A stretch of DNA of 62,083 nucleotides from Promethearchaeota archaeon (GTDB lineage: Archaea > Asgardarchaeota > Lokiarchaeia > Sigyniarchaeales > SOKP01), in the NCBI GenBank assembly GCA_016839585.1, contig JAEOTZ010000074.1:1-62083 (forward strand). Reading direction: 5' to 3'. How positions within the stretch are numbered: position 1 is the first letter of the stretch; every line of letters begins with the position of its first letter. The translations under genes and the position numbers were made by a program. Positions 9,242-52,883 of this stretch are shown here, piece by piece. Below the pieces are notes generated by a model. It was given only the letters and a program-made list of their open reading frames with translations, did not search any database and was not told where the DNA came from.

Positions 9242-9344
9242 TTTTTACACTAATTTTTTCAGTCTATTAGTATATTAATATAAGTTTTAATTTTCTAGTT
9301 CTAAATTGTTTAGTATATAAAATTATATTAATTTATTAGATCTG

Positions 9345-10588: not shown

Positions 10589-10599
10589 AAGTAGTAAAA

Positions 10600-12302: not shown

Positions 12303-12321
12303 GATTAATTAAATAAAAATA

Positions 12322-33074: not shown

Positions 33075-33101
33075 AATAAATTTGTCCATATCAAATTTTT
33101 A

Positions 33102-33944: not shown

Positions 33945-34943
33945 CTATCTAGTAATTACAGAAATATCTTTAAAATCTTCATTTTGAGATAAAGTCAATT
34001 TATTTCCAGTGGATAAAAACATTAATGCTAAAAACATCCTTACTAAGGCAAATTTCATGCCAATATCACTTTCTTCTTCAGTTTTAATAATGTCGGTCAA
34101 GTTATAAAAACTAGTTGGTTTACTGTTTAAATCAATTGTAGCTTTTATACGATTGAGCCATGATTCGTGTAATTCTTCAATTGTTTGATCTTTTCCACTG
34201 ATATGTTTTAAGAGTTCCCTTGGTAATTGTGCTTTAGATTTCATTTGTATTCTTTGTTGCTTTAATTCTTCCTTTCTCATTTGTCTTCTTCTTATTTTCT
34301 CCTTATTTTGCATTACTTCTATGATTGCTGATCTCATTGCATCAAATAATTCATCTTTTGTAGCTATTTGCATTTTAGGTTGTATAGGTTGTGGCAATGC
34401 TTTTGGAATGGATCGAGCATGTCTTTCTCTAAATTTTTTTAACTCTTCCATTTTCTGTATTTGTTCTTCTTCTCTGATAATGCTTGAAATTTTATAATGA
34501 TGCAAACTTGCTGATGTTTTAAGTGCAATACCAGATATTTTATAATTAATTAAATTCTCGTGAAGCATATTGTCAAAAAATTTATCAACTAAACTAGCCA
34601 AATCATAAAATGCAATTTCCGACTCTTTTGCCAACTCAGGATCTAATAAACTTGAATAGGGTGGCTTTTGCCAAAATTTCAATTCCATCTTTTCTTTTCT
34701 TAATAAAGCAAGATCCTCTTCTTCATCAAATCCAGCAACTAGTTCTTCTTCAAGTTCTTCTGGTTCTTGAGACCTATCGACAAATTCAGGATGAGAAACA
34801 ATTTTTTCGAGTAATTCGATAATATCTTTCTTTTTAGACTTTGATGGTATTTTAATATTATTCTTATTAGCGAATTCTCTTAATTCCTTTACTGTCCATT
34901 GAGTAAAATTAAATTTATTCTGTAAATCTTGCTTTTCTGATAT
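33945..34943 (-). CDS. scpA: Kleisin ScpA-like protein with N-terminal HEH/Rho-N-like domain; probable ATA start
   Basis: ISGIALKTSA and C-terminal VRMFLALMFL...LSQNEDFKDI; lies between the smc remnant and scpB; frame open 85 codons upstream of the ATG at 34688, up to an ATA preceded by GGTGA. Confidence 0.8.
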   Translation of the reverse strand: MSEKQDLQNKFNFTQWTVKELREFANKNNIKIPSKSKKKDIIELLEKIVSHPEFVDRSQEPEELEEELVAGFDEEEDLALLRKEKMELKFWQKPPYSSLLDPELAKESEIAFYDLASLVDKFFDNMLHENLINYKISGIALKTSASLHHYKISSIIREEEQIQKMEELKKFRERHARSIPKALPQPIQPKMQIATKDELFDAMRSAIIEVMQNKEKIRRRQMRKEELKQQRIQMKSKAQLPRELLKHISGKDQTIEELHESWLNRIKATIDLNSKPTSFYNLTDIIKTEEESDIGMKFALVRMFLALMFLSTGNKLTLSQNEDFKDISVITR

Positions 34944-34957: not shown

Positions 34958-35083
34958 TTAATTTTCTGTAATGGTTGGCTCAATATCTTCAAGTTCTAAA
35001 AGCCTTTTAGCTTCTTCTTCTAAATCGACACTAAAGATATCGGTGATCCCACTTTGTTGCATTGAAACTCCATAGATTCTATC
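34958..35083 (-). pseudogene. smc: Stranded 3' fragment of smc (41 codons plus stop)
   Basis: Translates DRIYGVSMQQSGITDIFSVDLEEEAKRLLELEDIEPTITEN*; the first 32 aa are identical to the C-terminus of the intact SMC (48435-48554). Confidence 0.93.
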
Positions 35084-35338
35084 TAGTTTCTTAACTATAA
35101 ATTATTCTCTAATCTTTTATTTATTTATCTATAATGTGATGATATTATTCTACCCTTAAAATTTTTAATAGATCATTATTAATCATTTAAAAGTAAAATA
35201 ACTAATCTATTTACTTTTTTAGATGTTAAGGTTATTTTTAGGATTAGTATTTAAAGAAAAAATTCGACCCATCATTCTCATTATTTTTCTTTATATATGT
35301 TGATTTGAATTTTATGTTCAAAAAAAAAATGATCAAAA

Positions 35339-35671
35339 ATGGTAAAATATTACAAACATAATAAGATAATAAAATTATGCACTGTCCTTGGAGCACTCTT
35401 AGCATTTTTATATTGCTTTTTTACTTTATTAAACACTAATAGTATTACTATATGGCCCATAAGTTTCAGTATTAACGGAGTTAATGGTATTATTATTGGA
35501 ATGATAGCCGCTACCTTAACATTTCTAGTTACAATGAAACCTGATGATCCCCTACCATGGCATTGGCTTACCCTTATTGTATTTGGGGTACTACTTTTCA
35601 TTTTCTGTCACATTTTACCTGGTATCTTGGTCTTTATTGGTGCAATTATAGGTATAATAGATGAAATTTAA
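35339..35671 (+). CDS. Small multi-TM membrane protein
   Basis: Three to four hydrophobic helices in 110 aa. Confidence 0.7.
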   Translation: MVKYYKHNKIIKLCTVLGALLAFLYCFFTLLNTNSITIWPISFSINGVNGIIIGMIAATLTFLVTMKPDDPLPWHWLTLIVFGVLLFIFCHILPGILVFIGAIIGIIDEI

Positions 35672-35686
35672 AAGGTGATGTAAAAA

Positions 35687-38600
35687 GTGAAAAGAGTTCA
35701 AAAAGTTTTATTCTGTTTTTGTTTTCTAGTGTGTATCAGTTCAATATTTTCGATAGAGGGAAGTTTAGGTCAAGATACTCGATTTCGACAAGAATTTATT
35801 CAAAATGAACAGATTGATACAAAAGATGAGATCAATAACAAGCCGATCCTCTCTTCTTCAAAAACCAACTACGAAATAATTCAAGAGATATTTTCAGCTA
35901 AATTATCAGATTATTCCTCGTTAGGATATTTTCCGCAAGTATATGAACCATCCTTACAAGCAACATTTTACGCACTTTATATATATAAAGTCATTGAACA
36001 ATTAGATCAGATTAGTTTTAATGATACAATAGAGTTTATAATGTCCTATTATAATAATACTACAAATATATTCTATGATAAGTATGCATATAGATTTTTG
36101 GATACTGATTTCTCACGTACATATTATTCTCTTTCTACGCTTCTTGAAGTTAATTGTTATGCAATCTTATCCTTAGGTATTTTAGATAGGTTAGATTTAA
36201 TTGATAAACAGAAGTCAATCGATTTCATTTGGAGTTGTTACAATCCACTCTCAAGCGGATTTATTGGACAACCCTATGATGTGGATTTAGAGGATTCATT
36301 TAAAATTTCTACTATGGATAACACATATTTTGCAGTTATGACACTAGACTTGTTAATGGATGACTGGAGTAGTTATACAGTTAAGAAAACTGAGGTAATA
36401 CAATATATTAATGACTTACAAGATTCAGTAAGTATTGATTGGAAATATGGAGGATTTTATAATGATAACAATAATACATTTGACAGTTTGACTCCTACAA
36501 AAGACCCCAGCCTTCTTTCTTCTTACTATTGTATTAAAACTTTAGAAATTTTTGAATTGGGAGATACAATTAATAAGATAAGTTTTCATCAATTTCTCGA
36601 TGAGTTATACATTATCAATGAAAATTATTTTAAAATGTCTAAGCTGGATCATAACTATACAAATATTGTTGCTACTGCAATTGGATTAGATCTTTCTTTA
36701 ACGACAGGATATTCAAATATAGATCAAAATGCTGTGACTAACTTTATTTTAAACCATAGAAATCATCTTAACATATGGGATTCCTCAACAACAGTAGCCA
36801 TGTATGAGTTAATCGACACATTCCAGATTATAAGGTCTTTAAATTCCACAGGTGCAATTTCTACCTTCAGTTCTTCCGAAAAGACTCAAGTTGCTAACGC
36901 TGTCAAAAATTTTTATCAGTTTAAGGGCTTTTCACTTACTTCTAAAGAATATACATCTCTAAAGCTTAATAATACAATTGTATCATCATTTCAATTGTTT
37001 GATCGAATTTCAGATTTAGATATACAAAATCTTTATTTAGTCATAAAGGAATGTTTTAGGCAATATGATTATCCTGAATATTGGTACGGATTTATAGATT
37101 ATATAAATGCTGATCCTTTGAAACCTGGTTTTCGGTCTCATCCTATTGAATACTATAATATAGGACATCGTAATTATATTACCGAAATTGATATGGTAAT
37201 GACTTTTAAATCGCTCTTTTTTGCCTTAGATTCAATGAATAAGCTATTTAAATTGGATGACTTTAATGGAGAATTTGGACTAGAAATTCTGATTAATGAT
37301 ATTATACAATCACAGTTTCTAAGCGATTCTTATCCAGAATATTACGGAGCATTTTTACCAATGCGTGGAAACTCCTTCTTTTCATATGAAAGCCAAATAA
37401 AGAAGATATTCTTTAAATATTCTTATTATGCCATAAAATCGTTAGAAGTACTAGTTAACCATCTGAATTTAGGAAATATTGTTAATTTATCTTTTAATAA
37501 AGGAGCATTATATGGATACATTGAAAGAAATATCATTGAAACCTCCTCCACACTCTATTTTGATCCAAAATACACTTCCAATGTTGATATTATCTTAGAA
37601 AATACTTATTATATGATCTATATTTTAAAAACACTGGATCTTTATGATTTAAACAGTCAAAAGATCGAAGAATTTGTACTCCAAAACATAAATTATGATA
37701 ATATAGACAATATCTATTATTCTTATAAAATTTCAGAAATCTTGAACTTAGAAATTGATTTTAACTTTGAACTAACGGGGGATTTAGTTAATTTACTATA
37801 TTCAGAGGATTTGAAAGAGTTTTATATAAGCTCCGATTGCGAAATGATTAACCAAGAGATTTTTCTCTGGATATGTGAAATGGCGAAAAATAGTGAATTA
37901 AAATTTATATGCGAATATGATGAATTGATTAACTTAGGAAGTGTCAATACCATTTCAACATCTTTTCGTAATCTGATTCTATCTAACTTTGGTCCATATA
38001 CTTCTGTTAAATTCGAAAGCTCTCAATTTGGTGTCTTAATCCTTGAGAGACAATTCGATAATACCTATCAAGTAAATTTAATGATTCCAGAAGATCCTAA
38101 CTACTATCCTTATGTTGAGGGGGATATAAAGGTATATGAAGGATCAAGAGTAATTGGTCAGACATCGGTATTCTTTCAGACTGAGTTTGAACAAATTGTT
38201 AATTATACAATTTTAAAGAATAAGGAATGGATTAAATTTGAAATAAACATATCTCGGAAATTCAACTCAGGATTTCAACCAGTTTATAATTCAACAGTAT
38301 CTATTGATATTATCAAAGATGACCAAGATCTTGTAACTTTAAATTTCAGTCGTAAAGATTACATAAGTTATTCTAAATTTACTTTAACCTATGGATACAA
38401 TGGATTAGGAAAATACTTTTTTAATATTATTATCATTGATGATTATTTTCCAAATGGTCAAAATATACTATCATACCTACAAACGATTTCAGAACCAGAT
38501 CCATTTGAGCTTAAAGTTAAAGGACCAATCTTAGCAGGTTTGAGTGTAGCAATATCAGCTACTTCAATGGTCGCAATAGTTAAAGGTGGAAGATGGGTTA

Positions 38601-38725
38601 AAGGAGAGAGAAAAAAGGAAAAACAAAGAGATACCAGTGAAAAAATTGAGAATGAAAAGCAAAAAAAGGATTCTAATGAAGAAATTAGTGATCTAAAAGA
38701 ATCAGCCTTTAAAGACTGGAATTAG
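35687..38725 (+). CDS. Secreted, C-terminally anchored protein with prenyltransferase/squalene-cyclase-like alpha-barrel repeats
   Basis: Signal peptide; repeats such as ATFYAL, SSGFIG, NTYFAV, YGGFY, SSYYCIKTL; C-terminal TM helix and charged tail. Confidence 0.7.
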   Translation: MKRVQKVLFCFCFLVCISSIFSIEGSLGQDTRFRQEFIQNEQIDTKDEINNKPILSSSKTNYEIIQEIFSAKLSDYSSLGYFPQVYEPSLQATFYALYIYKVIEQLDQISFNDTIEFIMSYYNNTTNIFYDKYAYRFLDTDFSRTYYSLSTLLEVNCYAILSLGILDRLDLIDKQKSIDFIWSCYNPLSSGFIGQPYDVDLEDSFKISTMDNTYFAVMTLDLLMDDWSSYTVKKTEVIQYINDLQDSVSIDWKYGGFYNDNNNTFDSLTPTKDPSLLSSYYCIKTLEIFELGDTINKISFHQFLDELYIINENYFKMSKLDHNYTNIVATAIGLDLSLTTGYSNIDQNAVTNFILNHRNHLNIWDSSTTVAMYELIDTFQIIRSLNSTGAISTFSSSEKTQVANAVKNFYQFKGFSLTSKEYTSLKLNNTIVSSFQLFDRISDLDIQNLYLVIKECFRQYDYPEYWYGFIDYINADPLKPGFRSHPIEYYNIGHRNYITEIDMVMTFKSLFFALDSMNKLFKLDDFNGEFGLEILINDIIQSQFLSDSYPEYYGAFLPMRGNSFFSYESQIKKIFFKYSYYAIKSLEVLVNHLNLGNIVNLSFNKGALYGYIERNIIETSSTLYFDPKYTSNVDIILENTYYMIYILKTLDLYDLNSQKIEEFVLQNINYDNIDNIYYSYKISEILNLEIDFNFELTGDLVNLLYSEDLKEFYISSDCEMINQEIFLWICEMAKNSELKFICEYDELINLGSVNTISTSFRNLILSNFGPYTSVKFESSQFGVLILERQFDNTYQVNLMIPEDPNYYPYVEGDIKVYEGSRVIGQTSVFFQTEFEQIVNYTILKNKEWIKFEINISRKFNSGFQPVYNSTVSIDIIKDDQDLVTLNFSRKDYISYSKFTLTYGYNGLGKYFFNIIIIDDYFPNGQNILSYLQTISEPDPFELKVKGPILAGLSVAISATSMVAIVKGGRWVKGERKKEKQRDTSEKIENEKQKKDSNEEISDLKESAFKDWN

Positions 38726-38951
38726 AATGTAGATCTTTCAAAATAAATTTCATAAAATTCGAAATTCTTTATTCTCTTGAATTAGATAAATCGATTTAGA
38801 CATCTTTAACATATAAATATGCTTTTTACTTTCAGTAAAGGTATCATACATCTTATTTAATCCACCCATCTTTTTCACATCATCATAAATATTAAATATT
38901 CAATGATAATCTTCAATTATAATAAAGACAAAATAAAAAATTTGATCTCTA

Positions 38952-41900
38952 ATGAAAGGGAGAAATATTACTATAATCTTTATCTTTTTTTTTATTTTAT
39001 CTACTAATCTATCATTTCCATTCAAGTGCTTAAATTCTAATGGAAATAATATCAATTTGATAAATAAGATCGATTTAAAAAATAATGGTTATTGGAATCT
39101 CACGGGAGCGAATATTTTCATTGATGACCTTGATCCTTCAAGAAACTGGTCTTATACAGCATCTCAGTATGATTGGTGTTCGGGTTCTGGTACTTGGAAT
39201 GAACCTTATATAATTGAAAACGTTACGATTGATGGTCAAAATACTGGAAGTTGTATTACCATTAAAAATTCTAATAAATTTTTTAAAATTAATAATTGTA
39301 CCCTCTATAATTCTGGTTCATTAAACACAAGAATGGGTATTAAATTAGAAAATGTTGAAAATGGATTGATAACAAATAATAGTTGTTATCTGAATGGTAA
39401 TGGAATATATGCATTATTGAATAATAATATAACAATTATGCAAAATAATGCATCAAATAATGCTTATAGTGGATTCCATTTCAACGGAAATCAATCACGA
39501 GTGACTAATAATACTGCATCATATAATTCTTATGATGGGATATCCCTTTTTTCATATAGTCGTGATATCATTGTGTCAAATAATACAGTAAGCTATAATG
39601 GAAGAAGCGGAATAAACTTATATAGTAGTGATAAAAGTGTTATAGCAGATAATTTAATTAAATATAATGGCTATGGAATCTATTTATATAGAGATTGTGA
39701 TAATAATAATTTAACAAGAAATAAAGTTTTTCACAATAATAATGGAGGAATAGTTATATTTGCATGCTTCTATGAGACAGCACAAGATAATATAATTTCA
39801 GAAAATATAATACACCATAATGGTGTTGCAGGTATTCGATTAGAGGGGGTATATGAGGATGATTTTTATCCTAATATAGAATGTTATAGAAATATTGTGT
39901 ACAACAATGAAATTGTTGATCATACATATGGAATATTCATAAAAAATTACGCTATTGAAAATGTGATTTTTGGCAACAATATCTCCCAAAGTTCATATAA
40001 TGGGATATATATCCGATTTGGTAGTGAGTTGAATTTAATTTATGAGAATCGTTTGACAAGTAGTACTTATGAAAACGCAAAAGATAATGTAGGAAATAAT
40101 TATTGGGATAATGGTATTATAGGGAATTATTATGACGATTATCAAGGAAAAGATGAAAATGATGACGGAATTGGAGATACTCCCCATAATATAGGTGGTT
40201 TAGGAGGAAGCGTAGACCATTTCCCTATCTGGGATGACGGAGATGATATTCCTACTCTTATTAATATAATTAAGCCGATTAACAATACATTTTTTGGAGT
40301 TATTCCACCAAATTATGAAGTGCTAATAGATGCTGCAGATTTAGATACTTCTTGGTATACTTTAAATGATGGAATAAAGTACATTTTCACTACTTCGACA
40401 GGAATCATAAATCAGAGTGCATGGGATGCATGTGATAATGGAACGGTGAAAATAACATTTTTTGTAAATGATACTGCTGGTCATTTAGGATCTAAAGAGG
40501 TTTATGTCTACAAAGATATTTATTTTCCAAACATTACAATTATCTCTCCAAAGAAAAATCAATTATTTAGTCATGAAACAATTGAATTTGGGGTTGTAGT
40601 TGACGAGTCGAATTTAAATTCAATTTGGTACACATTAAATGGTGGTCCAATATACTTATGTAATGAAACAACTGGGATGCTTAATAGTGAAGCATGGGAA
40701 AGTTGTGGAAATGGTTCAGTCATTATACGCTTCTATGCAAATGATTCAGCTGGAAATGTTGATTTAAGTGAAGTCATAGTCCGTAAAGATGTTGAAAGTC
40801 CTATTATTTCAATCATATCACCCACTTCTTTTCAATTATTTGGAAACAATACTATTGATTTTGAACTTACTATTGATGATGGAAATTTAAATACTACATG
40901 GTATACTTTAGATAATGGGTTGAATAACTATACATTTTTAGGCACATTAGGGATAATTGATCAAGATGCATGGGACGCTTGCGACAATGGTACTGTTACT
41001 CTAGGTTTTTATACTAATGATACTGTAGGGAATATCGCTTTTAAAGAAGTTATAGTGAGAAAAGATAATATTAATCCAGTCATTAATATTATTAAACCAG
41101 AACCATATGATACCTTTGGAAATTCTACTTTTTCTTATGAGATTCATATTGATGAAGCAAATTTGCATTCTATATGGTATTCTTTTAACAATGGTATCAA
41201 TAATTATTTTATAAATCAATCCATGGGGATTATTGATCAAGAATTTTGGGATCTGTTTGGAAATGGAACAGTAATCCTTTCTTTTTACGTTAATGATTCT
41301 GTAGGAAATTTAGGGTTATCTCAAGTAATGATTAGAAAAAATATATATGCTCCTGTTATAGTATTTGACTTTTCTGATACATATTTAAATACAACTACAC
41401 CTGAATATTATCATAAAGGCTTAGAAGTATCATGTGAAGTTCTAAATTATACTTCTCTATTATGGGTTTATCTTTGTGAAAATTCTAGTGGACTAATGGA
41501 AAATCGTTCTATGATTTATTTAGGCAATGGAATATGGACATATACAATCGATATTACAGCATTAGAATGGAAAGATCAATTTAGTTTTTACTTTCTTACT
41601 AAAGATATCTTAGGATATAGTGGTATCAATAATAATTTTACCAATATGTATACGATAAAAATACATGATTTTCAAGTTCCAATTATTACTATTAATTCAC
41701 CAATCACAAATGAGTTATACGGACTTCAAGCACCAACATTCGATATAGATATAAATGAATTATATCTTCAAGAAAAGTGGTACTCATTAAATGGAGGTAA
41801 TAACATAACGTTTACGACAGAAACTCAATTTGATCAAACTGAATGGAACAAAATAGAGAATGGTACAGTTCTAATTATTTTCTATGCTATAGATGAAACA

Positions 41901-42320
41901 GGAAATATGAATTCGAGTAAAGTTATCGTAAGAAAAGATGGATATCTACCAGATATTATAATCAATTCTCCGATGGATATGCAAAAATTTGGTAAAACTG
42001 CTCCAGATTTTAACATATCTATAATTGAAGAAAATTTTGTCTCTGCATGGTATACCATAGAAGGTATTGTAGGAATTTTTAATTTTACTGGATTGACTGG
42101 TACAATCAATCAAGATGCGTGGGATAATGCACCTGAAGGAGAGATAACCATAACCTTTTATGCTATAGATGGAGCAGGGAGTACAGGGAGTGAAAGTGTT
42201 GTTGTCATAAAAAGCATCCCTAGTACTGGTCCAGTAATTCCAGGATATAATATATTCCTTATACTTAGCGTTCTTTCAGGTTTTACAATCCTATTGAATA
42301 AAATAAAAAAGAAATCGTAA
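38952..42320 (+). CDS. Cell-surface protein: NosD/CASH right-handed beta-helix, Ig-like repeats and Loki-CTERM-like tail
   Basis: GI.L...NN.I..N repeats; GNYYDDYQGKDENDDGIGDTP; about 6 WYTLN...NGTV...NDxxGN repeats; IPGY-TM-KKK tail. Confidence 0.85.
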   Translation: MKGRNITIIFIFFFILSTNLSFPFKCLNSNGNNINLINKIDLKNNGYWNLTGANIFIDDLDPSRNWSYTASQYDWCSGSGTWNEPYIIENVTIDGQNTGSCITIKNSNKFFKINNCTLYNSGSLNTRMGIKLENVENGLITNNSCYLNGNGIYALLNNNITIMQNNASNNAYSGFHFNGNQSRVTNNTASYNSYDGISLFSYSRDIIVSNNTVSYNGRSGINLYSSDKSVIADNLIKYNGYGIYLYRDCDNNNLTRNKVFHNNNGGIVIFACFYETAQDNIISENIIHHNGVAGIRLEGVYEDDFYPNIECYRNIVYNNEIVDHTYGIFIKNYAIENVIFGNNISQSSYNGIYIRFGSELNLIYENRLTSSTYENAKDNVGNNYWDNGIIGNYYDDYQGKDENDDGIGDTPHNIGGLGGSVDHFPIWDDGDDIPTLINIIKPINNTFFGVIPPNYEVLIDAADLDTSWYTLNDGIKYIFTTSTGIINQSAWDACDNGTVKITFFVNDTAGHLGSKEVYVYKDIYFPNITIISPKKNQLFSHETIEFGVVVDESNLNSIWYTLNGGPIYLCNETTGMLNSEAWESCGNGSVIIRFYANDSAGNVDLSEVIVRKDVESPIISIISPTSFQLFGNNTIDFELTIDDGNLNTTWYTLDNGLNNYTFLGTLGIIDQDAWDACDNGTVTLGFYTNDTVGNIAFKEVIVRKDNINPVINIIKPEPYDTFGNSTFSYEIHIDEANLHSIWYSFNNGINNYFINQSMGIIDQEFWDLFGNGTVILSFYVNDSVGNLGLSQVMIRKNIYAPVIVFDFSDTYLNTTTPEYYHKGLEVSCEVLNYTSLLWVYLCENSSGLMENRSMIYLGNGIWTYTIDITALEWKDQFSFYFLTKDILGYSGINNNFTNMYTIKIHDFQVPIITINSPITNELYGLQAPTFDIDINELYLQEKWYSLNGGNNITFTTETQFDQTEWNKIENGTVLIIFYAIDETGNMNSSKVIVRKDGYLPDIIINSPMDMQKFGKTAPDFNISIIEENFVSAWYTIEGIVGIFNFTGLTGTINQDAWDNAPEGEITITFYAIDGAGSTGSESVVVIKSIPSTGPVIPGYNIFLILSVLSGFTILLNKIKKKS

Positions 42321-42476
42321 ACCATTTTTTTTCCTTTTTTTGCTTCCATTTTTATTACCTACATTTATTGAATCCAAAACTCAAGTCAATTTTTCTTCTT
42401 TTTTTTTACTTTTTGTTTACTTTTTATGTCTTTATGAAGATAAAAAACATAATATAAATAATTTAAAAGTTGAATT

Positions 42477-44729
42477 TTGAAAATTAAATATTTTAGAGAA
42501 ATCAATAAAAAGTTCTTTCTAATTTTATTCATTAATTTTTGCGTTATATTACTGTTATTTCATAATAATAATTTTTATGTAGATAACCAGAAAAAAGGCG
42601 TCCTAAATTCATCAAATGTACTTGGAGATGATGATAGAGTAAGAATCACTCCTACAACCTCTTATCCCTGGAGTAAAATTGTAAAATTACGTATAACTTG
42701 GGGAGGCTCGAATTATATTGGTTCAGGCGTGATAATCGATAAAAATCATGTACTCACTGCTGGACACTGTGTATATCAAAATTCTCTTGGAGGATGGGCT
42801 GAATCAATAAAAGTTTCTCCAGCTATTGATAATGGAAATGAGCCTTATGGGTATGCTTGGGTGATTAACATGCGTACGTATACTTATTGGATAGAAAGTC
42901 AATACACTCAATATGATTTCGCTCTCTTAACCCTAGACCAAGATATTGGTCTGCAAACAGGATGGATGGAAATTTATTCAGGTGAATCATCTGATCCAGT
43001 TTATAGAGGAGATCTTAATATAGCCGGTTATCCTTACGATTTAGATAATGGACAAAATATGTACTGGTGCTATGAAAGTGGACGGATTGCTACTGAAAAT
43101 AATCACTGGTATTATTTGGATACAGAAGGAGGTATGAGCGGTTCTCCTGTTTGGTTCGATGATGGAACTAATAAATATATCCTCTCAGTTCACACGTGTG
43201 GCAATGATGGTTCGGGAAGTAATCATGGAACCACGATAAATCAAAATAAATTATATGCCATTAATAATTGGATCTTTGTGGAAGAAACATCTATTGATAA
43301 ACCTGATTTAGCCTCTGGAACCAATGATTTTGCCAGTTTTAATACAACGATAGTTGGAGCAGGGATAACACCTTTTAAAACTTGGTGTGATGTTCATAAT
43401 GTAGGAACAACCCCATCAGGTTCCTTTATTATTTCATATTATGCTTCAAATGATACTATTATTTCAGAGGAGGATTATCTACTTGGGATTGCACCTATAT
43501 CTTCAATTTCTCCTACAAAATATAAAAGTTCAAGTTGGTCCGGGATTTTTCCTGAAAATGTGCCAAGTGGAAGATATTACATTGGTAGAATTCTAGACAT
43601 TAATAATAATATCGATGAATTCAATGAAAACAATAATATAAACTATATATCACCTACCAAGATTTTAGTTGATGCTACTCCTCCATTAAATCCTACATCA
43701 TGCATACAATTAGAAGGCTCAACACAGAATAATGTATGGCAAGGTTCGGTAAATGATCCTTTCTTCAGCTGGGATGGAGCTTCAGATGTTCATACAAATG
43801 TTGCAGGTTACTATTATTATTGGGGACCTGATCCTAATGGAACATCCACTAATTTTATCACACCTTCAAGTTACGATCCACCGGCAGTTAGCTCAGGTAT
43901 ATATTACCTGCGAGTTAAAACTCAAGATGGTGTTGGAAATAATGCAACGTGGAAAACTCTCTATATTTTTAAGTATGATGATACACCACCTCTAAATCCT
44001 ACCATTTGTAATCAATTAGAAGGATCGACAAAAAATAATATATGGCAAAATAAGGTAAATGATCCCTTTTTTAACTGGAGTGGGGCTTCTGATACCCAAT
44101 CTAATATAGCAGGATATTATTATTACTGGGGACCTGATATTAATGGAATATCATCTTCATTTACTTCATTAAATAGCTTGGATGCACCAATAGTTAGTTC
44201 AGGAACAAATTATCTAAGGATTCGAGCAAAAGATAACGCAGAAAATAATGCATCATGGATTACCCTTTACACTTTTAAATTTGATGGAATAGTACCTTTA
44301 AACCCTTCAACATGCGATCAATTAGCTGGCTCTACTCAAAACGATGTTTGGCAAGGCTTAGTAGATGATCCTTTCTTCAATTGGAGCGATGGGCTAGATT
44401 CTCACTCAGGTGTAGCTGGATACTATTATTATTGGGGTACTGATCTTAATGGAACATCCAATAATTTTACTATACATCCCATTTTTAATCCTCCAGTAGT
44501 GGAAACAGGAGTTTATTATCTAAGAATCCGCACAAAGGATAATGCAGGAAATAACGCATCATGGACCACGCTTTATATTTTTAAGTATGATGAGAGCTTA
44601 AGTAGTGTAGATAATAATTCAAATCATAGTTCTATAATGAAAAGTATCTTTATATTTGAAGTATTCGTAATTATTGCTCTTATTTGTTTGGTATCAATAT
44701 ATCAATTTAAAAAGCGCTTGAAGAGTTAA
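42477..44729 (+). CDS. Membrane-anchored trypsin-like (V8/S1B-type) serine protease with CARDB-like domain and three tandem repeats
   Basis: TAGHC, YDFALL and GMSGSP catalytic triad; DxNNxIDEFNENNN; C-terminal TM helix. Confidence 0.88.
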   Translation: MKIKYFREINKKFFLILFINFCVILLLFHNNNFYVDNQKKGVLNSSNVLGDDDRVRITPTTSYPWSKIVKLRITWGGSNYIGSGVIIDKNHVLTAGHCVYQNSLGGWAESIKVSPAIDNGNEPYGYAWVINMRTYTYWIESQYTQYDFALLTLDQDIGLQTGWMEIYSGESSDPVYRGDLNIAGYPYDLDNGQNMYWCYESGRIATENNHWYYLDTEGGMSGSPVWFDDGTNKYILSVHTCGNDGSGSNHGTTINQNKLYAINNWIFVEETSIDKPDLASGTNDFASFNTTIVGAGITPFKTWCDVHNVGTTPSGSFIISYYASNDTIISEEDYLLGIAPISSISPTKYKSSSWSGIFPENVPSGRYYIGRILDINNNIDEFNENNNINYISPTKILVDATPPLNPTSCIQLEGSTQNNVWQGSVNDPFFSWDGASDVHTNVAGYYYYWGPDPNGTSTNFITPSSYDPPAVSSGIYYLRVKTQDGVGNNATWKTLYIFKYDDTPPLNPTICNQLEGSTKNNIWQNKVNDPFFNWSGASDTQSNIAGYYYYWGPDINGISSSFTSLNSLDAPIVSSGTNYLRIRAKDNAENNASWITLYTFKFDGIVPLNPSTCDQLAGSTQNDVWQGLVDDPFFNWSDGLDSHSGVAGYYYYWGTDLNGTSNNFTIHPIFNPPVVETGVYYLRIRTKDNAGNNASWTTLYIFKYDESLSSVDNNSNHSSIMKSIFIFEVFVIIALICLVSIYQFKKRLKS
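43670..44590 (+). repeat. Three ~306-bp intragenic tandem repeats in the protease gene
   Basis: PLNP...CxQLxGST...DPFFxW...AGYYYYWG...YLR...NNAxWxTLYxFKxD occurs three times. Confidence 0.9.
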
Positions 44730-44892
44730 AAACTCAGGTAATTAAATTTTTTTTAACATTATAATCACTTAGATTATATTAAAGATAAAATGTAGAATAA
44801 ATTTTTCATACAAGAAACTTTTTATATGAATTATTAATATGACGTCTTGATAAAGTAATTAAAGTCTAAGTTATCAGATTTTTTGAATTAAA

Positions 44893-45585
44893 ATGATTGA
44901 AAAGACAAGTCAATCAAATAGAAATGAAGAAGATCCACCCTCTGTAGAGAATAAACAAAATAAGGAGCAAAAAGTCTTCGATGATAAAATCATTAAAATT
45001 AGTGATTCATTGATGAAAACTTATGTAATAGGAGGTTTATGTCTTACTTTTCCCGGATTTTTAATATTATTCATCTTTCTTTTTAGATTCTCACAGGAAT
45101 TTGAAACACCTCAATTAATTTTTACTGTTTTATTTATAGGGGGGTTTCCCATTATTACAATATTGATTTTTTATTTCATTAAGGGTCTAAGAAATTCTAC
45201 ATTTATTATGTCAGTTAATAAACTTGAGTTTTTTGCCAATAAATTTTTATTTTTAAGATTATATTGGACAGAAATTGAAAAAATAATAGTACAAAAAGAG
45301 ACATTTAGAAGACCTGTGAGTAGATATACTCTCTCATTTACTGCTTCGGATTCTGGTTATTCTTTAAACTTTAGTGGTGAAAATCTAGATAGAATCATTA
45401 ATCTCTGGTGTTTTCCTTTTAGTAAAAAAAAACAAAACGCAATTATAGATGGATTAGACAGATTTTCACAGAGACATAATAAAAAATTAATTTTAAAGAA
45501 TAAAATTGAAGATTTATATGATTATAATAAGTTACCATGTGAAGAAATCAATAATTTCATGAAATTACATAAGAAGAGAGTTTAA
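44893..45585 (+). CDS. Two-TM membrane protein with soluble C-terminal domain
   Basis: Two hydrophobic helices followed by a beta-rich segment (LYWTEIEKI, bPH-like). Confidence 0.7.
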   Translation: MIEKTSQSNRNEEDPPSVENKQNKEQKVFDDKIIKISDSLMKTYVIGGLCLTFPGFLILFIFLFRFSQEFETPQLIFTVLFIGGFPIITILIFYFIKGLRNSTFIMSVNKLEFFANKFLFLRLYWTEIEKIIVQKETFRRPVSRYTLSFTASDSGYSLNFSGENLDRIINLWCFPFSKKKQNAIIDGLDRFSQRHNKKLILKNKIEDLYDYNKLPCEEINNFMKLHKKRV

Positions 45586-45718
45586 GTATTGAAGAGAATA
45601 ATTCAAATCATAATTTTATAACAAAAATTATCTTTTTGGAAGTTTTTATAATTATTGCTCTTATTTGTGTAATATCAATATATCAGATTAAAAAGCGCAA
45701 AAAAAGATAAAAATTCAT
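45573..45718 (+). repeat. Diverged direct repeat of the protease gene 3' end (copy of 44589-44737)
   Basis: Translates EESLSIEENNSNHNFITKIIFLEVFIIIALICVISIYQIKKRKKR*, versus DESLSSVDNNSNHSSIMKSIFIFEVFVIIALICLVSIYQFKKRLKS* in the intact gene. Confidence 0.88.
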
Positions 45719-45810
45719 AATGTTGATTTCTTTAAGGAATGTATTTTTTTCATTGATTTCTTTTTTTTAAACTCTTTTTCTTTAAATATATCTGATAAAA
45801 TTAAGATCAA

Positions 45811-48402
45811 ATGGTTGAAAAAAGTTCTAAAAATAATTTCCCTAATCGCTGCAAATTCTGTGGGTGGAAATTTCCGAATGAATTAGTTGAAAGAATTAAT
45901 AAGAATAGTGATTTTCTATTTTGTGAACTCTGTGGTGCTGAAGTTAGATATAATAATGTGAAAAATCAAGAAAATGATGAAACTATTGAAAGTAAGAGTG
46001 ATAATGATCCAGGTGGCAGCATTGATAAATCAAAAAGTTCCCCTTGGAAACGATTCTATGAAACAATAAAGAATTTCATAATTGAAAATGAAGAGGGAGA
46101 AATTCAAGAAGGTTTAACTAAGAAACAAAGGGAACAAATTTTTAGAGTTTATAAAAACCCTGATTTTCCTCAAATTTTCAAAAGTAACTTTATTATTGTC
46201 TTTGCGCGAATTACTTATTTTGAGTTAAAAAAGCTAAAGAGCACGGCACATCTAAGGAATAGTAAAAGGAATTTAACAAAAGCTGAACTTAAAACTTTAA
46301 CAGAACGCCTTTCTCCAATTGCTAAGAAGGATATTAAAGTTGAATTCTTAAAAGACCTACATAAAATATCCCAAAATGATTTTAAGAAAAGGTTGAAAAG
46401 ACTACAAGTTAAATTGAAATCAAGCTCAACTTACTATCATGATTTCATCACCTACATTCAATGGCTTATAACAATTATCGCTAAAATCGTTTCAGAACTG
46501 TGGGATAATACAAATCTCCCCAAATTTGAACAAACAATACTTGAAGATTTAAAAAATTACTTTTACACCAAAAATAATATAAAAAATGATCCTGAAGAAA
46601 ATTTAACTGATAATATTTTAAAAGATGATTTTAGAAAAAATAATTTTGGGAAATTCTGCCATGTGGTAGTTGAGTATATTAAGAAGAGAATAGGGATTTC
46701 TAATAACAGATTTGACGAATATTACATACACATTAAAGAAAAGGGGCTTAATAATGAGGAGATACTTGAAGATGTTCTTTCAGACGATACCCTAACTAGA
46801 TTTCTAAAAATTTCAAATATTGATGCCCAAATTGACGATAGGTATATTAGCTCTAAGAATAGAAATAAGACTAAAAGAATTATACAAATCATTGCTCTTT
46901 TATTATTAAAATGCCCCAATTATCATTGTGTTGTTGACAATTTATCACGAATTGGGATAAGTTCTAAAACTAAGCAAAAATTAAGTAAACAAATGGCTAG
47001 AAAATCTGTTAGAAATTTTTTGAACAAGTTTCAAAAATTATATCCGCAAGTTGATCTTCAAAAATGGCTCCCGAAACCAAAGGAGAAATATACTCTTGAA
47101 TATATTAAAAACCTAGTAAAAGTAGTCAGTATAGAAAGAATAGGAGTAGAGGGGGAATTAATAGAACCTGAAACTGCTCAAAAATTTAAAGCTTTGAAAA
47201 ATAAATTGAGTTTAAAACCGGGTTCAGTGCCTTTAAAAGTTAAGTGTAGAAAATGTGGGGGGGTATTAAAAACTATGGGAAAATATCTCGAACGGGGAGA
47301 TTGGCCATGTAAATTATGTTTAGGATATATATATTCTTATAAAATGCTTAAAAGCGCAGTAAAAATGGTAAGTATTGAGAAAACATCTATTGAGGGTAAA
47401 TTGTTATGGCCTTCAAATGAAAATGATTGGATCAAGTATATATATAATCCAAATAGAAAATCTAAACCAAGTAGAATTCGATTAACGGTTCAATGTGGGT
47501 CCTGTGGAAACATATGGCACCCAGAAGCGCGAGCAGTAGTGCAGGAGAGACAGTGGTGTAAAATATGTAGTTGGAATGTGTTAACTTATGAAAAACTTGT
47601 ATTTTTAGTAGAATCTGTAGGATTAAATAAAACTGGAGTTAAAGGGATTTTAATCCGTCCTGAAAACGAAAACAAATTCAATGAACTTCTCAATAATGCT
47701 AGGAATATAATTGAATCTCTAAATATTAGTAAAAATAACCCCCGTTATAAAGGGTTGCAGCCAAAAAGATTAGGAATACAAGTTAAATGTGGGTTTTGTA
47801 AAAACCCATTTTCTACAAATGCAGAACGTTTGATTGCAAATAAATTTTGCCCTAGATGTTCATCTGGGGAGTATGAACAGATAATTTGTTGGTATGCTTC
47901 AAAAATCTTTAGTTATATTACAAAATCTAAATTAATTTTTCCAAAAGTACAATTAAGCAAAGTAATTAACAGTTTTGATAAAAATCGTTATTCACAAGAG
48001 GAACTAAATGCTATTGAAAACTTAATTAGAAAAGGGGGAGGCCATATTGATGGATATGAAAAATTTACTCTAGAATATAGTTGGTTAAAATTGGGCATTG
48101 AATATCAAGGGGAATACCATTATAAAGTTAAAAAATATTTAAATATGACAGATATAGATTTGGAATATCGTAAATTATTAGATTATTTAACAAAGGATCT
48201 TTCTGAACAGAATGAAATAATTTTATTAATATTTCCTTATTATGTTGATCCTTATATGCGGCATCCTAAAAAGATACAGAAATTTATTATTAATGAATTC
48301 GAAAGGTTAACTAATATTGATATAAAAAAGTATAATATTCCTCTATTCGACCACAGAACTCCAGAATTTGGCCAATATCGGTTAGATAATTATCTTAAGT
48401 AA
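45811..48402 (+). CDS. Zn-ribbon-repeat endonuclease, EDxHD/Vsr-like (homing-endonuclease-like), with PIP-box-like tail
   Basis: N-terminal CKFC...CELC; three repeats each ending in CxxC...CxxC; GEYEQ...IDGY...IEYQGEYHY...D; ends QYRLDNYLK. Confidence 0.72.
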   Translation: MVEKSSKNNFPNRCKFCGWKFPNELVERINKNSDFLFCELCGAEVRYNNVKNQENDETIESKSDNDPGGSIDKSKSSPWKRFYETIKNFIIENEEGEIQEGLTKKQREQIFRVYKNPDFPQIFKSNFIIVFARITYFELKKLKSTAHLRNSKRNLTKAELKTLTERLSPIAKKDIKVEFLKDLHKISQNDFKKRLKRLQVKLKSSSTYYHDFITYIQWLITIIAKIVSELWDNTNLPKFEQTILEDLKNYFYTKNNIKNDPEENLTDNILKDDFRKNNFGKFCHVVVEYIKKRIGISNNRFDEYYIHIKEKGLNNEEILEDVLSDDTLTRFLKISNIDAQIDDRYISSKNRNKTKRIIQIIALLLLKCPNYHCVVDNLSRIGISSKTKQKLSKQMARKSVRNFLNKFQKLYPQVDLQKWLPKPKEKYTLEYIKNLVKVVSIERIGVEGELIEPETAQKFKALKNKLSLKPGSVPLKVKCRKCGGVLKTMGKYLERGDWPCKLCLGYIYSYKMLKSAVKMVSIEKTSIEGKLLWPSNENDWIKYIYNPNRKSKPSRIRLTVQCGSCGNIWHPEARAVVQERQWCKICSWNVLTYEKLVFLVESVGLNKTGVKGILIRPENENKFNELLNNARNIIESLNISKNNPRYKGLQPKRLGIQVKCGFCKNPFSTNAERLIANKFCPRCSSGEYEQIICWYASKIFSYITKSKLIFPKVQLSKVINSFDKNRYSQEELNAIENLIRKGGGHIDGYEKFTLEYSWLKLGIEYQGEYHYKVKKYLNMTDIDLEYRKLLDYLTKDLSEQNEIILLIFPYYVDPYMRHPKKIQKFIINEFERLTNIDIKKYNIPLFDHRTPEFGQYRLDNYLK

Positions 48403-48434
48403 ATTCTAGTAAAAGGATTCTTTCTATACTTTTT

Positions 48435-51400
48435 TTAAATAACAGTACTTTCTTCTTCCTCTAATTCTAAAAGTCGCTTTGCCTCTTCCTCTAGATCTAC
48501 ACTGAAAATGTCTGTTATCCCACTTTGTTGCATGGAGACACCGTATATACGGTCTGCGTTAACTATATTCTCTTCACGATGGCTTATTACGAGGAACTGG
48601 GCTTGTTTTGAGAATTCACGTATCTGCATTGACACCCTATGGACGTTCGGCCCATCCAAGGCGGCATCAATCTCATCCATAATGTAAAAGGGTGCTGGAT
48701 AAAATTCTTGCACGGCAAAAATAAATGAAAGTGCCACGAGTGTTTTTTCACCCCCACTGAGAATTTCCAGACTTGAAATTTTCTTCCCACGAGGTCGAGC
48801 TTCGATGCTAATCCCTCCTTCAAAGGGTTTATCAGGGCGATCTAGGATCATTTTAGCCGAACCACCGGGACTAAGCTTCTGGAAAATTCTACTGAACTCT
48901 CTATTTATTTCATGGTAAGCTTTCATGAAGGTTCTTGTCTTCTCAAGTTCTATTTTATCTATTGCGTCTAAGATCGCCTTGCGTTCACGTTGAATAGTCT
49001 GTCTTCGCATATCTATCTCGTCGAATCTCTCTTTTACGGCATCATATTGTTCAATGGCTTTTAAGTTGACTGGTTCAAGAGCTTTTTTCTTCGTTGTTAC
49101 GTCCCCAATATCTGATTGTAATTCAGCTTCTGTTAAATCCTCAGTAACAGGAGGGAGTGCCCCATATTCTTTAGATCTCTGGAATAGAGTCTCTATTTGA
49201 TCAGTACAAATTATTTTTTTAGCTTCATAATTATTTATTTTAGCATTTTCCATAGAAAGATCTGATTTTAAATCATTTAAGATTTTTTGATATTGCTTTT
49301 GCTTTCTCCATGATTCGTCCTTTTTCAGATTGAATTCATCGATTTCTTTTTGTTTTACATCCTTTTTTCCATTTTCACTATTAAGTTGTTGCTTAAATTT
49401 TTCTAGTTCTTCTAAAATTGATTCTATTTGTTTTTCAGTATCTTTAATATCTTGATTTAATTCTGAAATTTTTTGTTCTCTTTCCTTATTTTTGTTTAAC
49501 TCATTAATTTGGCGTTGATATTTCTGTAAATCCTTATTTAATTTATTTAATTCTTTTTGAGCTGCTTTTTGTAATTCTACTTCTTTTGTTTTTTCATTTC
49601 TCAAGGAATCTATAGTCTGTTGTTTTTGATCAACATTTTTTTGAATTTCATCTACTTGAGAATTGAAATTTTCAATATTGTTAAGACAGAGTTCAATTTT
49701 ATTATTAGCATCTATATTCTCTTTCTTAATATCTTCAATTGAATTAATAATTCTCATCACATTTTCAAGTGCTCTTAGACGATCCATTGTATCTTCTAAT
49801 GACTCATTTTCCTTGTCTATTTGTTTTCTTAAACTTTCTGTTTTTTCCCAAAATTTTTCTTTTTCTAAAATTAATGCTTCAATTTTGTTTTGTAAGGTAT
49901 TTTGTTCTGTATGAATTTGATTTATGCTTTCTTCTGTATTGATAATTGAATTTTTCTTTTCCTCAATAATAATATTTAACTTTCCTATGTCAGAATCAAT
50001 TTCTGTAATATTTTCAAATAAATTTTGGATTCCGTGCAATTCTTGAAGATTTTCTCTTAAGTCTTCTAATTCTTTTTGTTTTTTATCAATATCATCTTGA
50101 ATCTTCGAAATATTTTCCCAGTAAGTATCTTTTAGTTCTTTTAATTTATTTATCTCAATTTCTAATTTTTCTGTTTCTTTTTGCTTCTCATTGACTAATT
50201 TCTTTCTTTCTTCAATTTCTAATTCAGAATTTTTAAATTTTTCATTTAATTCCTTATTTCTTCCATTAATTTCTTCAAGTCTTCTTGTTAATGTTGACGA
50301 GGTTTCTGAATTATGTTTTTTTAGAAGACTTAATTCTGACAATTTTTTCTCCGCACTATTAAGATCATCTCCTTGTGATTTAATATTTTCAGAGATATCT
50401 TCTAGTTGCTTATATAAATCTTGACTTTTTGACAATGTTAATTTTCTTAATGAAATATAGACATTTTCAAGAATTTCCATTAAATCCTGTACAAAGCTAT
50501 CAAAAGTTGAGGTTGATTCTTGTACTTCTACATCAGCAGATTCTTTAACTCTATTAATTAATTGATCAATTGTTGAATCTGCATTATCAGTAAATAATTT
50601 TAAAGTTCGGAGGATGGAATTTAACGTGTATGACATTTCAGAGGATTGTTCAGTATCCTCACTAATCCCCTCAACACTTTTCATGATATCTACAATATCT
50701 AGAATAAACTTTTTGAAATCTTCAGCAGAGGTCTCAATTGCTTCTGCATTTGATAATTGGATGTTACTTTTAATAGATTCAACAGAAATGTTAATATTTT
50801 GAGTGAGCATATTTAAAATTTGAAGAATTCCCGTTATATCTCTGGTATTTTTCTCATATTCTTCTTCAGAAGATTCTATTTTTTCTAATAAACTATCTCT
50901 TTCCTTTGTAAGTTCTTCTAAACGTCTTTGAATGTTCTGACTTTTAGAATTAAAATTTTCTGTATCTTTTTCTATTTTTGATAGATTACTATTTAGAGAA
51001 TTAATTTGCACTTCTGAATTACCCTTTTCACGCTCTAATTTAGTTAATTCTTTTTTAAAAATTTTTAATTCTGTATTGATATTATCTATTTTTGCATTAT
51101 TATCATGAATTTCTGAATCAAATGAATATTGTTTCATCTTTAAAAGTTCTAGATTTTGTTCATTACTCCTGAATACTGAGTTTTCTTTTTTCAAAGCTGT
51201 TTTTAATTCACTCAATTGTTTGTTAATATTTTCATTTTCTTTCAATAAACCCTTTACAACTTCTTCTGTGTCTTTACCTTTACTTAAATCTCTAATTTTA
51301 TTCTCAAAAGATGCTTTTTTATCATTTAAATCTTGGATTGTATTTCTATTCATACTAATTTCAGTATTCAATGATGATAATGTAGATTGTAGAAGAACTA

Positions 51401-52883
51401 ATTTTGAATTTAGTTGGTTTTTTTCTTCTTGAATGGCATTAATGTTAGTTTCTAACTCTTTTTGTTTTTGATTTTCTTCATTGTTTTTAGTTTTTAAATC
51501 TTCAATCCTCTTTCTAATTTGTTTTTCAGTCTTTTTTGCCTCATCAATAGCTTCATCTATACTTTCAGCTTCTTGTTTCAATTTATTCAATTCAGTTTCT
51601 AATTTAATTTTCTTTTCTTCATTCTTTTTTATACTTTCTCTAAGAAGCTTTATCTGGGTGTTATTTGATGAGATGTTTTGTTGTACTTTTGAAATTTCCG
51701 CTTTAAATTGTGATTTTTCATCCTCATTATTTTTAATTTTTATATCAAATTCAGATTGATTTTGTTGTCTTCTTTCAATTTCCTTTTTAGCTGCTTCGAG
51801 GTGATTTTCACACTCAGAAATTTGACCAGATACATCTTGAATTAAAGAATCATAAGTTTGTCCTTCCTCAAGTACCATTAGTAAATTCTCTAAATTTTTT
51901 ATTTCTTGTGTCAATTTATCTATTGATTTTCTAGCTAAATCTAAAGTAGTTTGACTTGAAGATAATTGTGTCTTTAAATTTGTTATGTTTTCGTTTACTT
52001 CTTCTCTTTCCTTTTCTCTATCAGTAATCGTTTTCTGAATGTTCTCCATAACTAATGATTCTTGTTTCAGGATATCTTCTTGTCGAGAGATCTTTTCTTT
52101 AAGTTCTTCAATAATTTTTGAAGATTCTTCGACCTTTTTTTCTAATTCATCTTCTTCTTCTCGTAATTTTGAAATTTTTAAAGCAATTAATTTTGAATTT
52201 AAGAAATTTATTTGTTGATCTAATTCTTTCCAAGCTAATGCATCATTTTTTTCTTTTTCAACTTTTTTAAGCTGAGCAGAAACTTCTTTGAAAATTGCTT
52301 CAAACTGTCCTAAATCTCTTTCTGCTTTTTCTAACTCTTTTAAAGTGGAATCTTTCATTTCGTCATATTTCTGAAGCCCAATTAATTCTTCAATGAATGA
52401 TCTTCTCTCCTCTGCATTCATATGAGTTAATTCAACAATTTTACCTTGAAGTACGAATTGGTTACTACCATCTGGATCTACATTAGCTGCTGCTAAAGCA
52501 TTGAGAATCTGTTGGCGAGTAGATTTTTGACCATTCATTTTATAACCCCCACCACCACCTTTTTTAATAGTTCGTGTTATTTCGAATGTATCGGTACTCC
52601 CGGGAAAAACATTTTCTGAATTATCAAAATACATTGTCACAGAAGCTCTTGTCGAGGGATTTTTTCCTTTAGCACCAGCAAAAATAAGGTCTTCCAAACT
52701 TTTTGCTCTCATAGTCTTCTTACTTAGTCTGCCTAAAGCAAAACATAATGCATCTATAATATTAGATTTCCCAGCACCATTTGGTCCAACAATACATGTG
52801 AAACCACTTGAAAATTTGATTGTTACTGTTCGTTCTCCAAATGATTTGAAACCAGTCATAGAGATTTTTTTAATATATGTCAA
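48435..52883 (-). CDS. smc: Chromosome segregation protein SMC
   Basis: GFKSF, GPNGAGKSN, VLQG Q-loop, LSGGEK signature, MDEIDAALD, ISH; long coiled coils; TTG start. Confidence 0.97.
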   Translation of the reverse strand: MTYIKKISMTGFKSFGERTVTIKFSSGFTCIVGPNGAGKSNIIDALCFALGRLSKKTMRAKSLEDLIFAGAKGKNPSTRASVTMYFDNSENVFPGSTDTFEITRTIKKGGGGGYKMNGQKSTRQQILNALAAANVDPDGSNQFVLQGKIVELTHMNAEERRSFIEELIGLQKYDEMKDSTLKELEKAERDLGQFEAIFKEVSAQLKKVEKEKNDALAWKELDQQINFLNSKLIALKISKLREEEDELEKKVEESSKIIEELKEKISRQEDILKQESLVMENIQKTITDREKEREEVNENITNLKTQLSSSQTTLDLARKSIDKLTQEIKNLENLLMVLEEGQTYDSLIQDVSGQISECENHLEAAKKEIERRQQNQSEFDIKIKNNEDEKSQFKAEISKVQQNISSNNTQIKLLRESIKKNEEKKIKLETELNKLKQEAESIDEAIDEAKKTEKQIRKRIEDLKTKNNEENQKQKELETNINAIQEEKNQLNSKLVLLQSTLSSLNTEISMNRNTIQDLNDKKASFENKIRDLSKGKDTEEVVKGLLKENENINKQLSELKTALKKENSVFRSNEQNLELLKMKQYSFDSEIHDNNAKIDNINTELKIFKKELTKLEREKGNSEVQINSLNSNLSKIEKDTENFNSKSQNIQRRLEELTKERDSLLEKIESSEEEYEKNTRDITGILQILNMLTQNINISVESIKSNIQLSNAEAIETSAEDFKKFILDIVDIMKSVEGISEDTEQSSEMSYTLNSILRTLKLFTDNADSTIDQLINRVKESADVEVQESTSTFDSFVQDLMEILENVYISLRKLTLSKSQDLYKQLEDISENIKSQGDDLNSAEKKLSELSLLKKHNSETSSTLTRRLEEINGRNKELNEKFKNSELEIEERKKLVNEKQKETEKLEIEINKLKELKDTYWENISKIQDDIDKKQKELEDLRENLQELHGIQNLFENITEIDSDIGKLNIIIEEKKNSIINTEESINQIHTEQNTLQNKIEALILEKEKFWEKTESLRKQIDKENESLEDTMDRLRALENVMRIINSIEDIKKENIDANNKIELCLNNIENFNSQVDEIQKNVDQKQQTIDSLRNEKTKEVELQKAAQKELNKLNKDLQKYQRQINELNKNKEREQKISELNQDIKDTEKQIESILEELEKFKQQLNSENGKKDVKQKEIDEFNLKKDESWRKQKQYQKILNDLKSDLSMENAKINNYEAKKIICTDQIETLFQRSKEYGALPPVTEDLTEAELQSDIGDVTTKKKALEPVNLKAIEQYDAVKERFDEIDMRRQTIQRERKAILDAIDKIELEKTRTFMKAYHEINREFSRIFQKLSPGGSAKMILDRPDKPFEGGISIEARPRGKKISSLEILSGGEKTLVALSFIFAVQEFYPAPFYIMDEIDAALDGPNVHRVSMQIREFSKQAQFLVISHREENIVNADRIYGVSMQQSGITDIFSVDLEEEAKRLLELEEEESTVI

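Follow-up and report, generated by a model that had tools for sequence, protein, structure and literature searches.

In the 62,083-nucleotide stretch of Promethearchaeota DNA that we analysed (the window), the gene smc shifts abruptly towards codons ending in G or C in its last part. This end, raised in third-codon-position GC content (GC3), is probably a two-layer recombination mosaic that does not share the vertical descent of the remaining gene. Comparison of alleles establishes the last 100 codons as a replacement that arrived with an island now lying between smc and its operon partners scpA and scpB, while codons 1259-1381 upstream of them fit an older recombination tract, for which the support is weaker than for the terminal layer. 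Below, G000 is the genome of the window, other G numbers are congener genomes and L numbers are locus regions or metagenomic alleles.

The codon-usage step in smc and its two layers

As given by the list of open reading frames (ORFs) and its translation, smc (48435..52883, minus strand) comprises 1482 codons plus stop, with a TTG start as listed; orthologues of 1484-1513 codons were present in 30 relatives. Sliding GC3 and change-point analysis delimited a raised tract at codons 1259-1482 (48438..49109, minus strand), where GC3 was 0.37 compared to 0.16 in codons 1-1258. In 60-codon windows, GC3 stayed at 0.10-0.27 over codons 1-1230 and at 0.30-0.45 from codon 1231 to the stop, and the best single change-point fell at codon 1259-1260, at about window position 49106-49109. 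The proportion of G/C-ending codons differed significantly before (201/1230) and after (89/252) the change-point (Fisher p = 9e-11), and this change-point ranked second among the 1313 ORFs of at least 300 codons in the genome, in which GC3 in 250-codon windows had a mean of 0.20, a standard deviation of 0.043 and a 99th percentile of 0.33. The N-terminal and C-terminal heads of the protein were separated by GC3 only, and not by GC1 or GC2. These analyses confirmed the abrupt shift over the last ~750 bp that had been proposed from the letters of the window alone (the sequence-only reading), and its hand counts (about 25/58 G/C-ending codons C-terminally, about 9/58 N-terminally) held up on recomputation, at 0.43 for codons 1381-1440 (48564-48743) and 0.18 for codons 1-60. 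The 126-bp duplicated part of smc described there was recovered as a stranded native tail of 41 codons plus stop at 34958-35083, and the AT-rich island cargo as island genes with a GC3 of 0.19-0.24, the nuclease gene included.

The terminal layer, codons 1382-1482 (48438..48740, minus strand; GC3 0.39-0.44), had 39/101 G/C-ending codons (p = 6e-7 against the smc body) and diverged from the alleles of G031, L091 and L092 from codon 1382 onwards. The smc genes of G000 and G031 shared ~98% nucleotide identity over codons 1-1375 and 67% from there to the end, and the islands beside them carried surface proteins in G000 vs AAA_23/AAA_15 ATPases in G031. Two metagenomic alleles of the G000 clade, from the Ga0209635 and Ga0209536 metagenomes, extended this comparison: L091 had a third kind of smc end, and L092 lacked the island, its scpA adjoining smc and its end being AT-rich (21/94). 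All of G000, G031 and L091 parted from L092 at codon 1381/1382. The live tail in the window ended in ...LELEEEESTVI and the native one in ...LELEDIEPTITEN. Furthermore, the last 74 codons of L092 were 97.3% identical to the remnant of smc stranded beyond the G031 island, which indicates that the remnant is the displaced native tail and that the empty allele still circulates. Occupied (G000, G031) and empty (L092) alleles coexist and are 97-99% identical upstream of the switch. The same switch point, codon 1381/1382, was found in G012 and G005, which belong to other clades, and the block that follows it (codons 1382-1392, CTC GTG GCx CTC TCx ...) was common to 11 species genomes. The tree of the smc body united G000 with G031 and G008 with G005, each with 100% support; approximately unbiased (AU) tests on the end segment rejected both pairings (p = 3e-4 and p = 5e-5, respectively). 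These rejections, together with two genomes that are ~98% identical in the rest of smc but differ completely in its last ~100 codons, speak for the long recombination tract that was one of the two explanations offered by the sequence-only reading.

The older tract, codons 1259-1381 (48741..49109, minus strand), was likewise raised (44/123 G/C-ending codons, p = 1e-6 against the body) and was 97-99% identical in G031, L091 and the island-free L092. Its 120 codons upstream of the switch were GC3-raised in all four of G000, G031, L091 and L092 (36-42/120), and since this includes island-free L092, the present island is not the cause. Whether island-free smc shows the same rise, a question raised by the sequence-only reading, was answered differently for the two layers: the upstream 120 codons did (36/120 in L092), but the end of L092 did not. 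An AU test on codons 1262-1375 conflicted with the body tree more weakly (p = 0.03), and the tract contained a rare serine-codon swap that it shares with lineages of another clade. Between G000 and G004, the G/C-ending positions of the upstream tract were barely shared (odds ratio 2.5), suggesting independent accumulation.

Islands between smc and scpAB

The native operon is smc-scpA-scpB, and scpA directly followed smc in 13 of the 17 congeners in which the locus was examined. In the window, scpB (33102-33917, minus strand; Pfam ScpB) and scpA (33945-34934, minus strand; assigned by synteny, with an N-terminal extension and no GC3 rise) are preceded directly upstream by the 5'-truncated native smc tail (34958..35083, minus strand), which matched the G031 remnant almost letter for letter where the two overlap. 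The remnants of G004, G008, G017 and G031 were longer, at ~73-76 codons, and started near smc codon 1409. Between tail and smc lies the 13.3-kb island (35084..48434, no strand assigned), whose cargo, annotated by Pfam, NCBIfam and PHROGs scans, consists of surface or secreted proteins (alpha-alpha toroid, beta-helix, trypsin/CARDB) on the strand opposite to the smc operon. No integrase, including the tyrosine and serine site-specific types, was detected among the island ORFs in these scans.

Right-end alignment revealed a motif at the border with the remnant (TTTTAAGG..TATCATCA..TATAG..AAATAAA; 35084..35215, minus strand) that is present in a single copy in the genome. This motif (~110 nt, followed by an ATG before the remnant) was common to five islands with unrelated cargo (G000, G004, G008, G017 and G031); besides the window copy, it lay at L090:2340-2470 (G031) and ahead of the remnants in L046, L039 and L048. 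Its TTTTAAGG element is TATA-like, and the motif may act as a promoter that faces outward and maintains scpAB expression.

Islands of 6.5-17 kb occupied the site between smc and a ~74-codon remnant in G004, G008 and G017, and in L073 a nuclease homologue directly followed smc. The G031 island is split over two contigs. In G004, G008, G017, L073 and G031, the smc stop was abutted by a large Zn-finger protein that carries the nuclease domain found in the window, and with the window this places nuclease homologues at the same position in six islands. The G031 island (L090:2883-12544) has a defence-like look, with two AAA_23/AAA_15 ATPases, an AAA+ protein and a histone-fold protein.

We compared tail GC3 and island presence in 16 congeners and 55 scored metagenomic alleles; the metagenomic alleles found numbered 332. 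Raised tails were found in 7/16 congeners, and the other nine, all island-free, were flat. Among those with islands, the raised part covered ~205-225 codons in G000 and G004 and ~81 codons in G008 and G017, where it was about as long as the duplicated part and began at codons 1401-1403, near the point where the remnant starts; three island-free congeners, G002, G005 and G012, carried raised partial blocks. In metagenomic alleles with an island (n=16), GC3 was 0.22 in the body, 0.37 over the last 74 codons and 0.32 over the 151 codons before them, compared to 0.21, 0.27 and 0.26, respectively, in those without (n=39). The excess over the body was 0.14 with an island vs 0.06 without in the last 74 codons (Mann-Whitney p = 2e-4), and 0.10 vs 0.05 in the preceding 151 (p = 8e-4). 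Raised tail GC3 goes with the presence of an island and is not confined to it. Some of the island-free alleles with raised tails look, from their sequences, like excision scars: the end of L074 (LELPDV+EPTITEN) is chimeric, joining a G031-like tail to the native end, and G012 has kept only a block at codons 1381-1405.

The island-type tails have lost the host's A/T bias at synonymous sites and use bases near-uniformly. At 4-fold sites with an A/T native consensus, 28% were unchanged, 27% carried the other A/T base and 45% carried G or C. Native tail proteins were 97-99% identical across the genus and island-type proteins 85-94% identical to native ones, and as a class of alleles the island-type tails evolve fast and are derived from within the genus. 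Their changes clustered at codons 1401-1402, 1420-1426 and 1431 (window ~48590-48683). Recurrent replacements included VIKEFAS to QIREFSK, LLKEISD, VIQEFSK and others, as well as M1431L, and could reflect relaxed or diversifying selection on the C-terminus of the SMC head.

The protein next to smc is an 863-aa Zn-ribbon protein (45811..48402, plus strand), whose gene converges on smc, with 33 nt between its end and the smc stop. Its C-terminus is a predicted nuclease, with a modelled Vsr-type alpha/beta core and conserved acidic and histidine residues. This Vsr/EDxHD-like PD-(D/E)xK domain (residues 641-863; 47731-48399, plus strand) was modelled by AlphaFold2 with a predicted local distance difference test score (pLDDT) of 91, and the model aligned in VIA-align with Vsr (1cw0; Z 8.5, root-mean-square deviation 3.1, 112 residues aligned) and with the catalytic domain of I-Bth0305I (3r3p; Z 7.7, 98/98 residues aligned). 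Across 39 homologues, G127, H130 and D151 were invariant and D107, E124 and K154 were at least 90% conserved. The domain had no Pfam match, and its membership of the sequence family is putative; Foldseek returned only weak restriction-enzyme matches, and a profile search of solved structures gave nothing useful. The N-terminal module of the protein recurs elsewhere fused to LAGLIDADG domains, and its model (pLDDT 64) had no recombinase-like fold match, the best Z being 6.2.

Cause of the shift

In the mechanism that we propose, the site between smc and scpAB would be a hotspot at which nuclease-bearing islands insert. As the comparison of alleles shows, an island-type tail (codons 1382-1482) travels with the island and becomes the live 3' end of smc, leaving the native AT-rich tail stranded on the island's far side. 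The second layer (codons 1259-1381) would be older and fixed in the species, and most likely stems from earlier, longer conversion tracts or from enrichment in situ. For the rise in GC itself, we would guess first at a GC bias in heteroduplex repair: at every transfer the smc tail would have to pair with recipient DNA, and island-specific DNA would never pair. GC3 was raised only in the arm that would take part in this pairing (the changes are unpolarised), the rise being confined to the smc arm because both the island DNA and scpA are flat, and we suspect that biased repair is the best fit to the tail data. The candidate causes would, in our ranking, run from biased repair through divergence from a nuclease target to an unsampled donor.

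The other explanation offered by the sequence-only reading was selection for synonymous divergence, by which the island nuclease would cut the native AT-rich smc tail and the island would supply a synonymously recoded tail that it cannot cut; in an AT-rich genome such recoding necessarily raises GC3. We consider this unlikely, although every island examined has a predicted Vsr/I-Bth0305I-like nuclease gene abutting the smc tail, the G000 clade, G012 and G005 all switch at codon 1381/1382 on the left and continue into the same shared block, and close relatives are polymorphic for the island. The shift extends over 670 bp, far beyond any nuclease target that we know of. It is ten times the ~60 bp footprint of the related EDxHD enzyme I-Bth0305I, which loses cleavage only after several simultaneous substitutions (PMC3239194). 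As this enzyme tolerates a few substitutions, multi-site recoding would be needed, a point that we count for immunity. However, a simulation covering G031, G017, G004 and G008 lent it no support: the codon differences between tail and remnant equalled the expectation from tail composition in G031 (33/57, p = 0.50) and G017 (p = 0.96), and in G004 and G008 tail and remnant were more alike than chance. Nor were unchanged 4-fold sites, at 28%, depleted below random, the differences were not densest over the best-conserved native codons (1390-1399), and the upstream 120 codons were equally shifted in island-free L092. Immunity may apply to the short block shared at codons 1382-1392, beside the recurrent junction. 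In a fuller version that we find similarly doubtful, the island-type tails would be synonymously and partly non-synonymously recoded 'rescue' copies, and island-free alleles would be cut and converted. If that were true, it would constitute a natural cleave-and-rescue drive on an essential condensin gene of Asgard archaea, with the resistant recoded alleles of G002, G005, G012 and L074 as debris of an arms race; nuclease immunity, if true, would make this a natural gene-drive-like system.

A tail received, with or without its island, from a higher-GC relative and not yet drifted back to AT-richness would account for the CGN arginine and GCG/TCG/CCG codons of island-type tails, which are rare in the host, and GC-richer smc genes do exist: GC3 was 0.3-0.95 in relatives of the same order and 0.39 along smc in the metagenomic lineage L118. 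We hold such a donor to be improbable, since the island cargo and nuclease gene are host-like, with a GC3 of 0.19-0.24, and island-type tails have retained residues specific to the genus; at the protein level, their similarity to other genera does not exceed that of native tails (0.77-0.87 vs 0.84-0.86). Among ~100 alleles, none matched the G000 end at more than 82% nucleotide identity, that match lying in a low-GC genome, and the recoded block was not found in viral contigs. Least probable, to the point that we take it as largely refuted by the flat orthologues and the N-terminal head, is an intrinsic preference of the conserved C-terminal ATPase head for G/C-ending 'accurate' codons, as in highly expressed or conserved genes. 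Other top GC3 change-points did lie in RNA polymerase A' and A'' and in actin, with no nuclease relative detected on their contigs, and island-free alleles as a group had a small tail rise (0.26-0.27 vs 0.21, p = 2e-6). However, nine congeners whose tail proteins are 98-99% identical had a flat GC3 of ~0.2, the equally conserved N-terminal head had a GC3 of 0.18, and the end of the related island-free L092 is AT-rich.

Several points weigh against the two-layer mosaic that we favour. A symmetric recombination bias, as one candidate cause of the GC rise, should lift GC3 in scpA too, which is flat. Remnant GC3 was mixed (0.23 to 0.49). The AU conflict in the upstream tract, at p = 0.03, is weak and perhaps pulled by base composition, and the p-values for association with islands are optimistic and overstate significance because the species and alleles compared are related. 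All support is comparative and is drawn from metagenome-assembled genomes.

Known systems and similar layouts elsewhere

The arrangement resembles that of e14 and phage 21 in the Escherichia coli icd gene, in which an element in the 3' end of an essential gene supplies a live, mostly synonymously differing end and the native end is stranded as a pseudogene (icdC) on the element's far side. At smc, too, an island separates the gene from a stranded copy of its 3' end, and the live end changes with the element. We know of no description of a GC3 signature for icd. Loss of e14 leaves a chimeric icd with a run of synonymous changes (PMC13626634), and L074 and G012 resemble this state. Unlike e14, which encodes a site-specific integrase, the smc islands yielded none in our scans and have a homing-type nuclease gene in that position; moreover, the shifted tract reaches ~125 codons past the ~74-codon duplication of those relatives whose remnants are intact, and many smc tail alleles circulate among species.

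T4-like phages carry free-standing Seg and Mob homing endonucleases, whose intronless homing co-converts flanking markers. The smc locus is similar in having a nuclease gene beside a conserved gene, a presence/absence polymorphism and replaced tracts of variable length. Unlike co-infecting phages, however, it concerns the cellular chromosome of an Asgard archaeon, cargo of up to 17 kb, a duplicated gene end and a cleavage that is putative. The predicted nuclease resembles I-Bth0305I in its modelled Vsr-like fold and conserved acidic and histidine residues, but the gene for I-Bth0305I lies within a group I intron of phage recA (PMC3239194), whereas the smc-adjacent protein is free-standing, 863 aa long, and has several Zn ribbons and an N-terminal module. 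Another Asgard mobile element with a homing-type nuclease is HeimM2 of Heimdallarchaeum, whose homing-endonuclease homologue was proposed to be co-opted for site-specific integration; it lies between a 16S rRNA gene and a tRNA gene, and neither replacement of a gene end nor a codon shift is reported there (PMC8813620).

In very AT-rich genomes, a local GC3 step in a conserved gene can mark an element-supplied end, even after loss of the element. At the smc-scpAB hotspot of Promethearchaeota, islands with different cargo and smc tails would replace one another in near-identical genomes, making this a rare natural case in which the ATPase-head C-terminus of an essential chromosome-organisation protein is swapped between species. 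If biased repair proves true, GC-biased conversion in archaea could be studied at this locus as a clean natural experiment.

The sequence-only reading had asked for other core genes with GC3-shifted tails next to similar nucleases. Genome-wide, none was convincing among the gene ends beside nuclease paralogues (contigs C33, C78, C5, C75 and C47), and the contigs of the top change-points, which also include ORFs of unknown function, had no detected nuclease relative. The 3' ends of RNA polymerase A' and A'' (G000 C61 27659-31810) had a GC3 of 0.38-0.43, and an actin homologue (G000 C10 15964-17109) had 0.29 in its first 200 codons and 0.54 in the rest; raised GC3 in these genes may reflect an expression-linked preference for G/C-ending codons. 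Duplications of gene termini were found on C59, C65, C20, C82, C7, C47 and C54, with a GC3 rise in C65 only. Since duplicated ends mostly lack a rise, the shift is not an automatic or general property of replaced ends.

Within the island, the end of the trypsin/CARDB gene is itself duplicated (44581-44736 and 45565-45717, 984 bp apart, 82% identity), and the two copies bracket one small gene. Two other ORFs of the window, of 863 and 866 aa, were considered as relatives of the nuclease protein and are unrelated, one being a valyl-tRNA synthetase. C59 (L172, L173) carries a second island built like that at smc: a pyridine-nucleotide oxidoreductase (pyr_redox) gene at 8053-9549 is followed by a convergent 1203-aa ORF (9557-13168) that has HNH-like motifs and, over one region, shares 36% identity with the smc-adjacent protein of G031, and a copy of the last 78 codons of the pyr_redox gene lies 23.5 kb downstream, at 33042-33275. 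On C47 (177489-180340; L060), a 366-aa nuclease-domain paralogue stands between a 474-aa gene and a copy of that gene's N-terminus (24 residues, 92% identical), a 5'-end version of the smc layout. The C59 and C47 loci showed little or no GC3 shift. Finally, on the 3.1-kb contig C65 (352-2285; L171), GC3 is 0.53 over a stretch of 38 codons close to the end of a radical-SAM gene, and a diverged copy of this stretch, with a GC3 of 0.32, lies ~80 bp past the stop of that gene.

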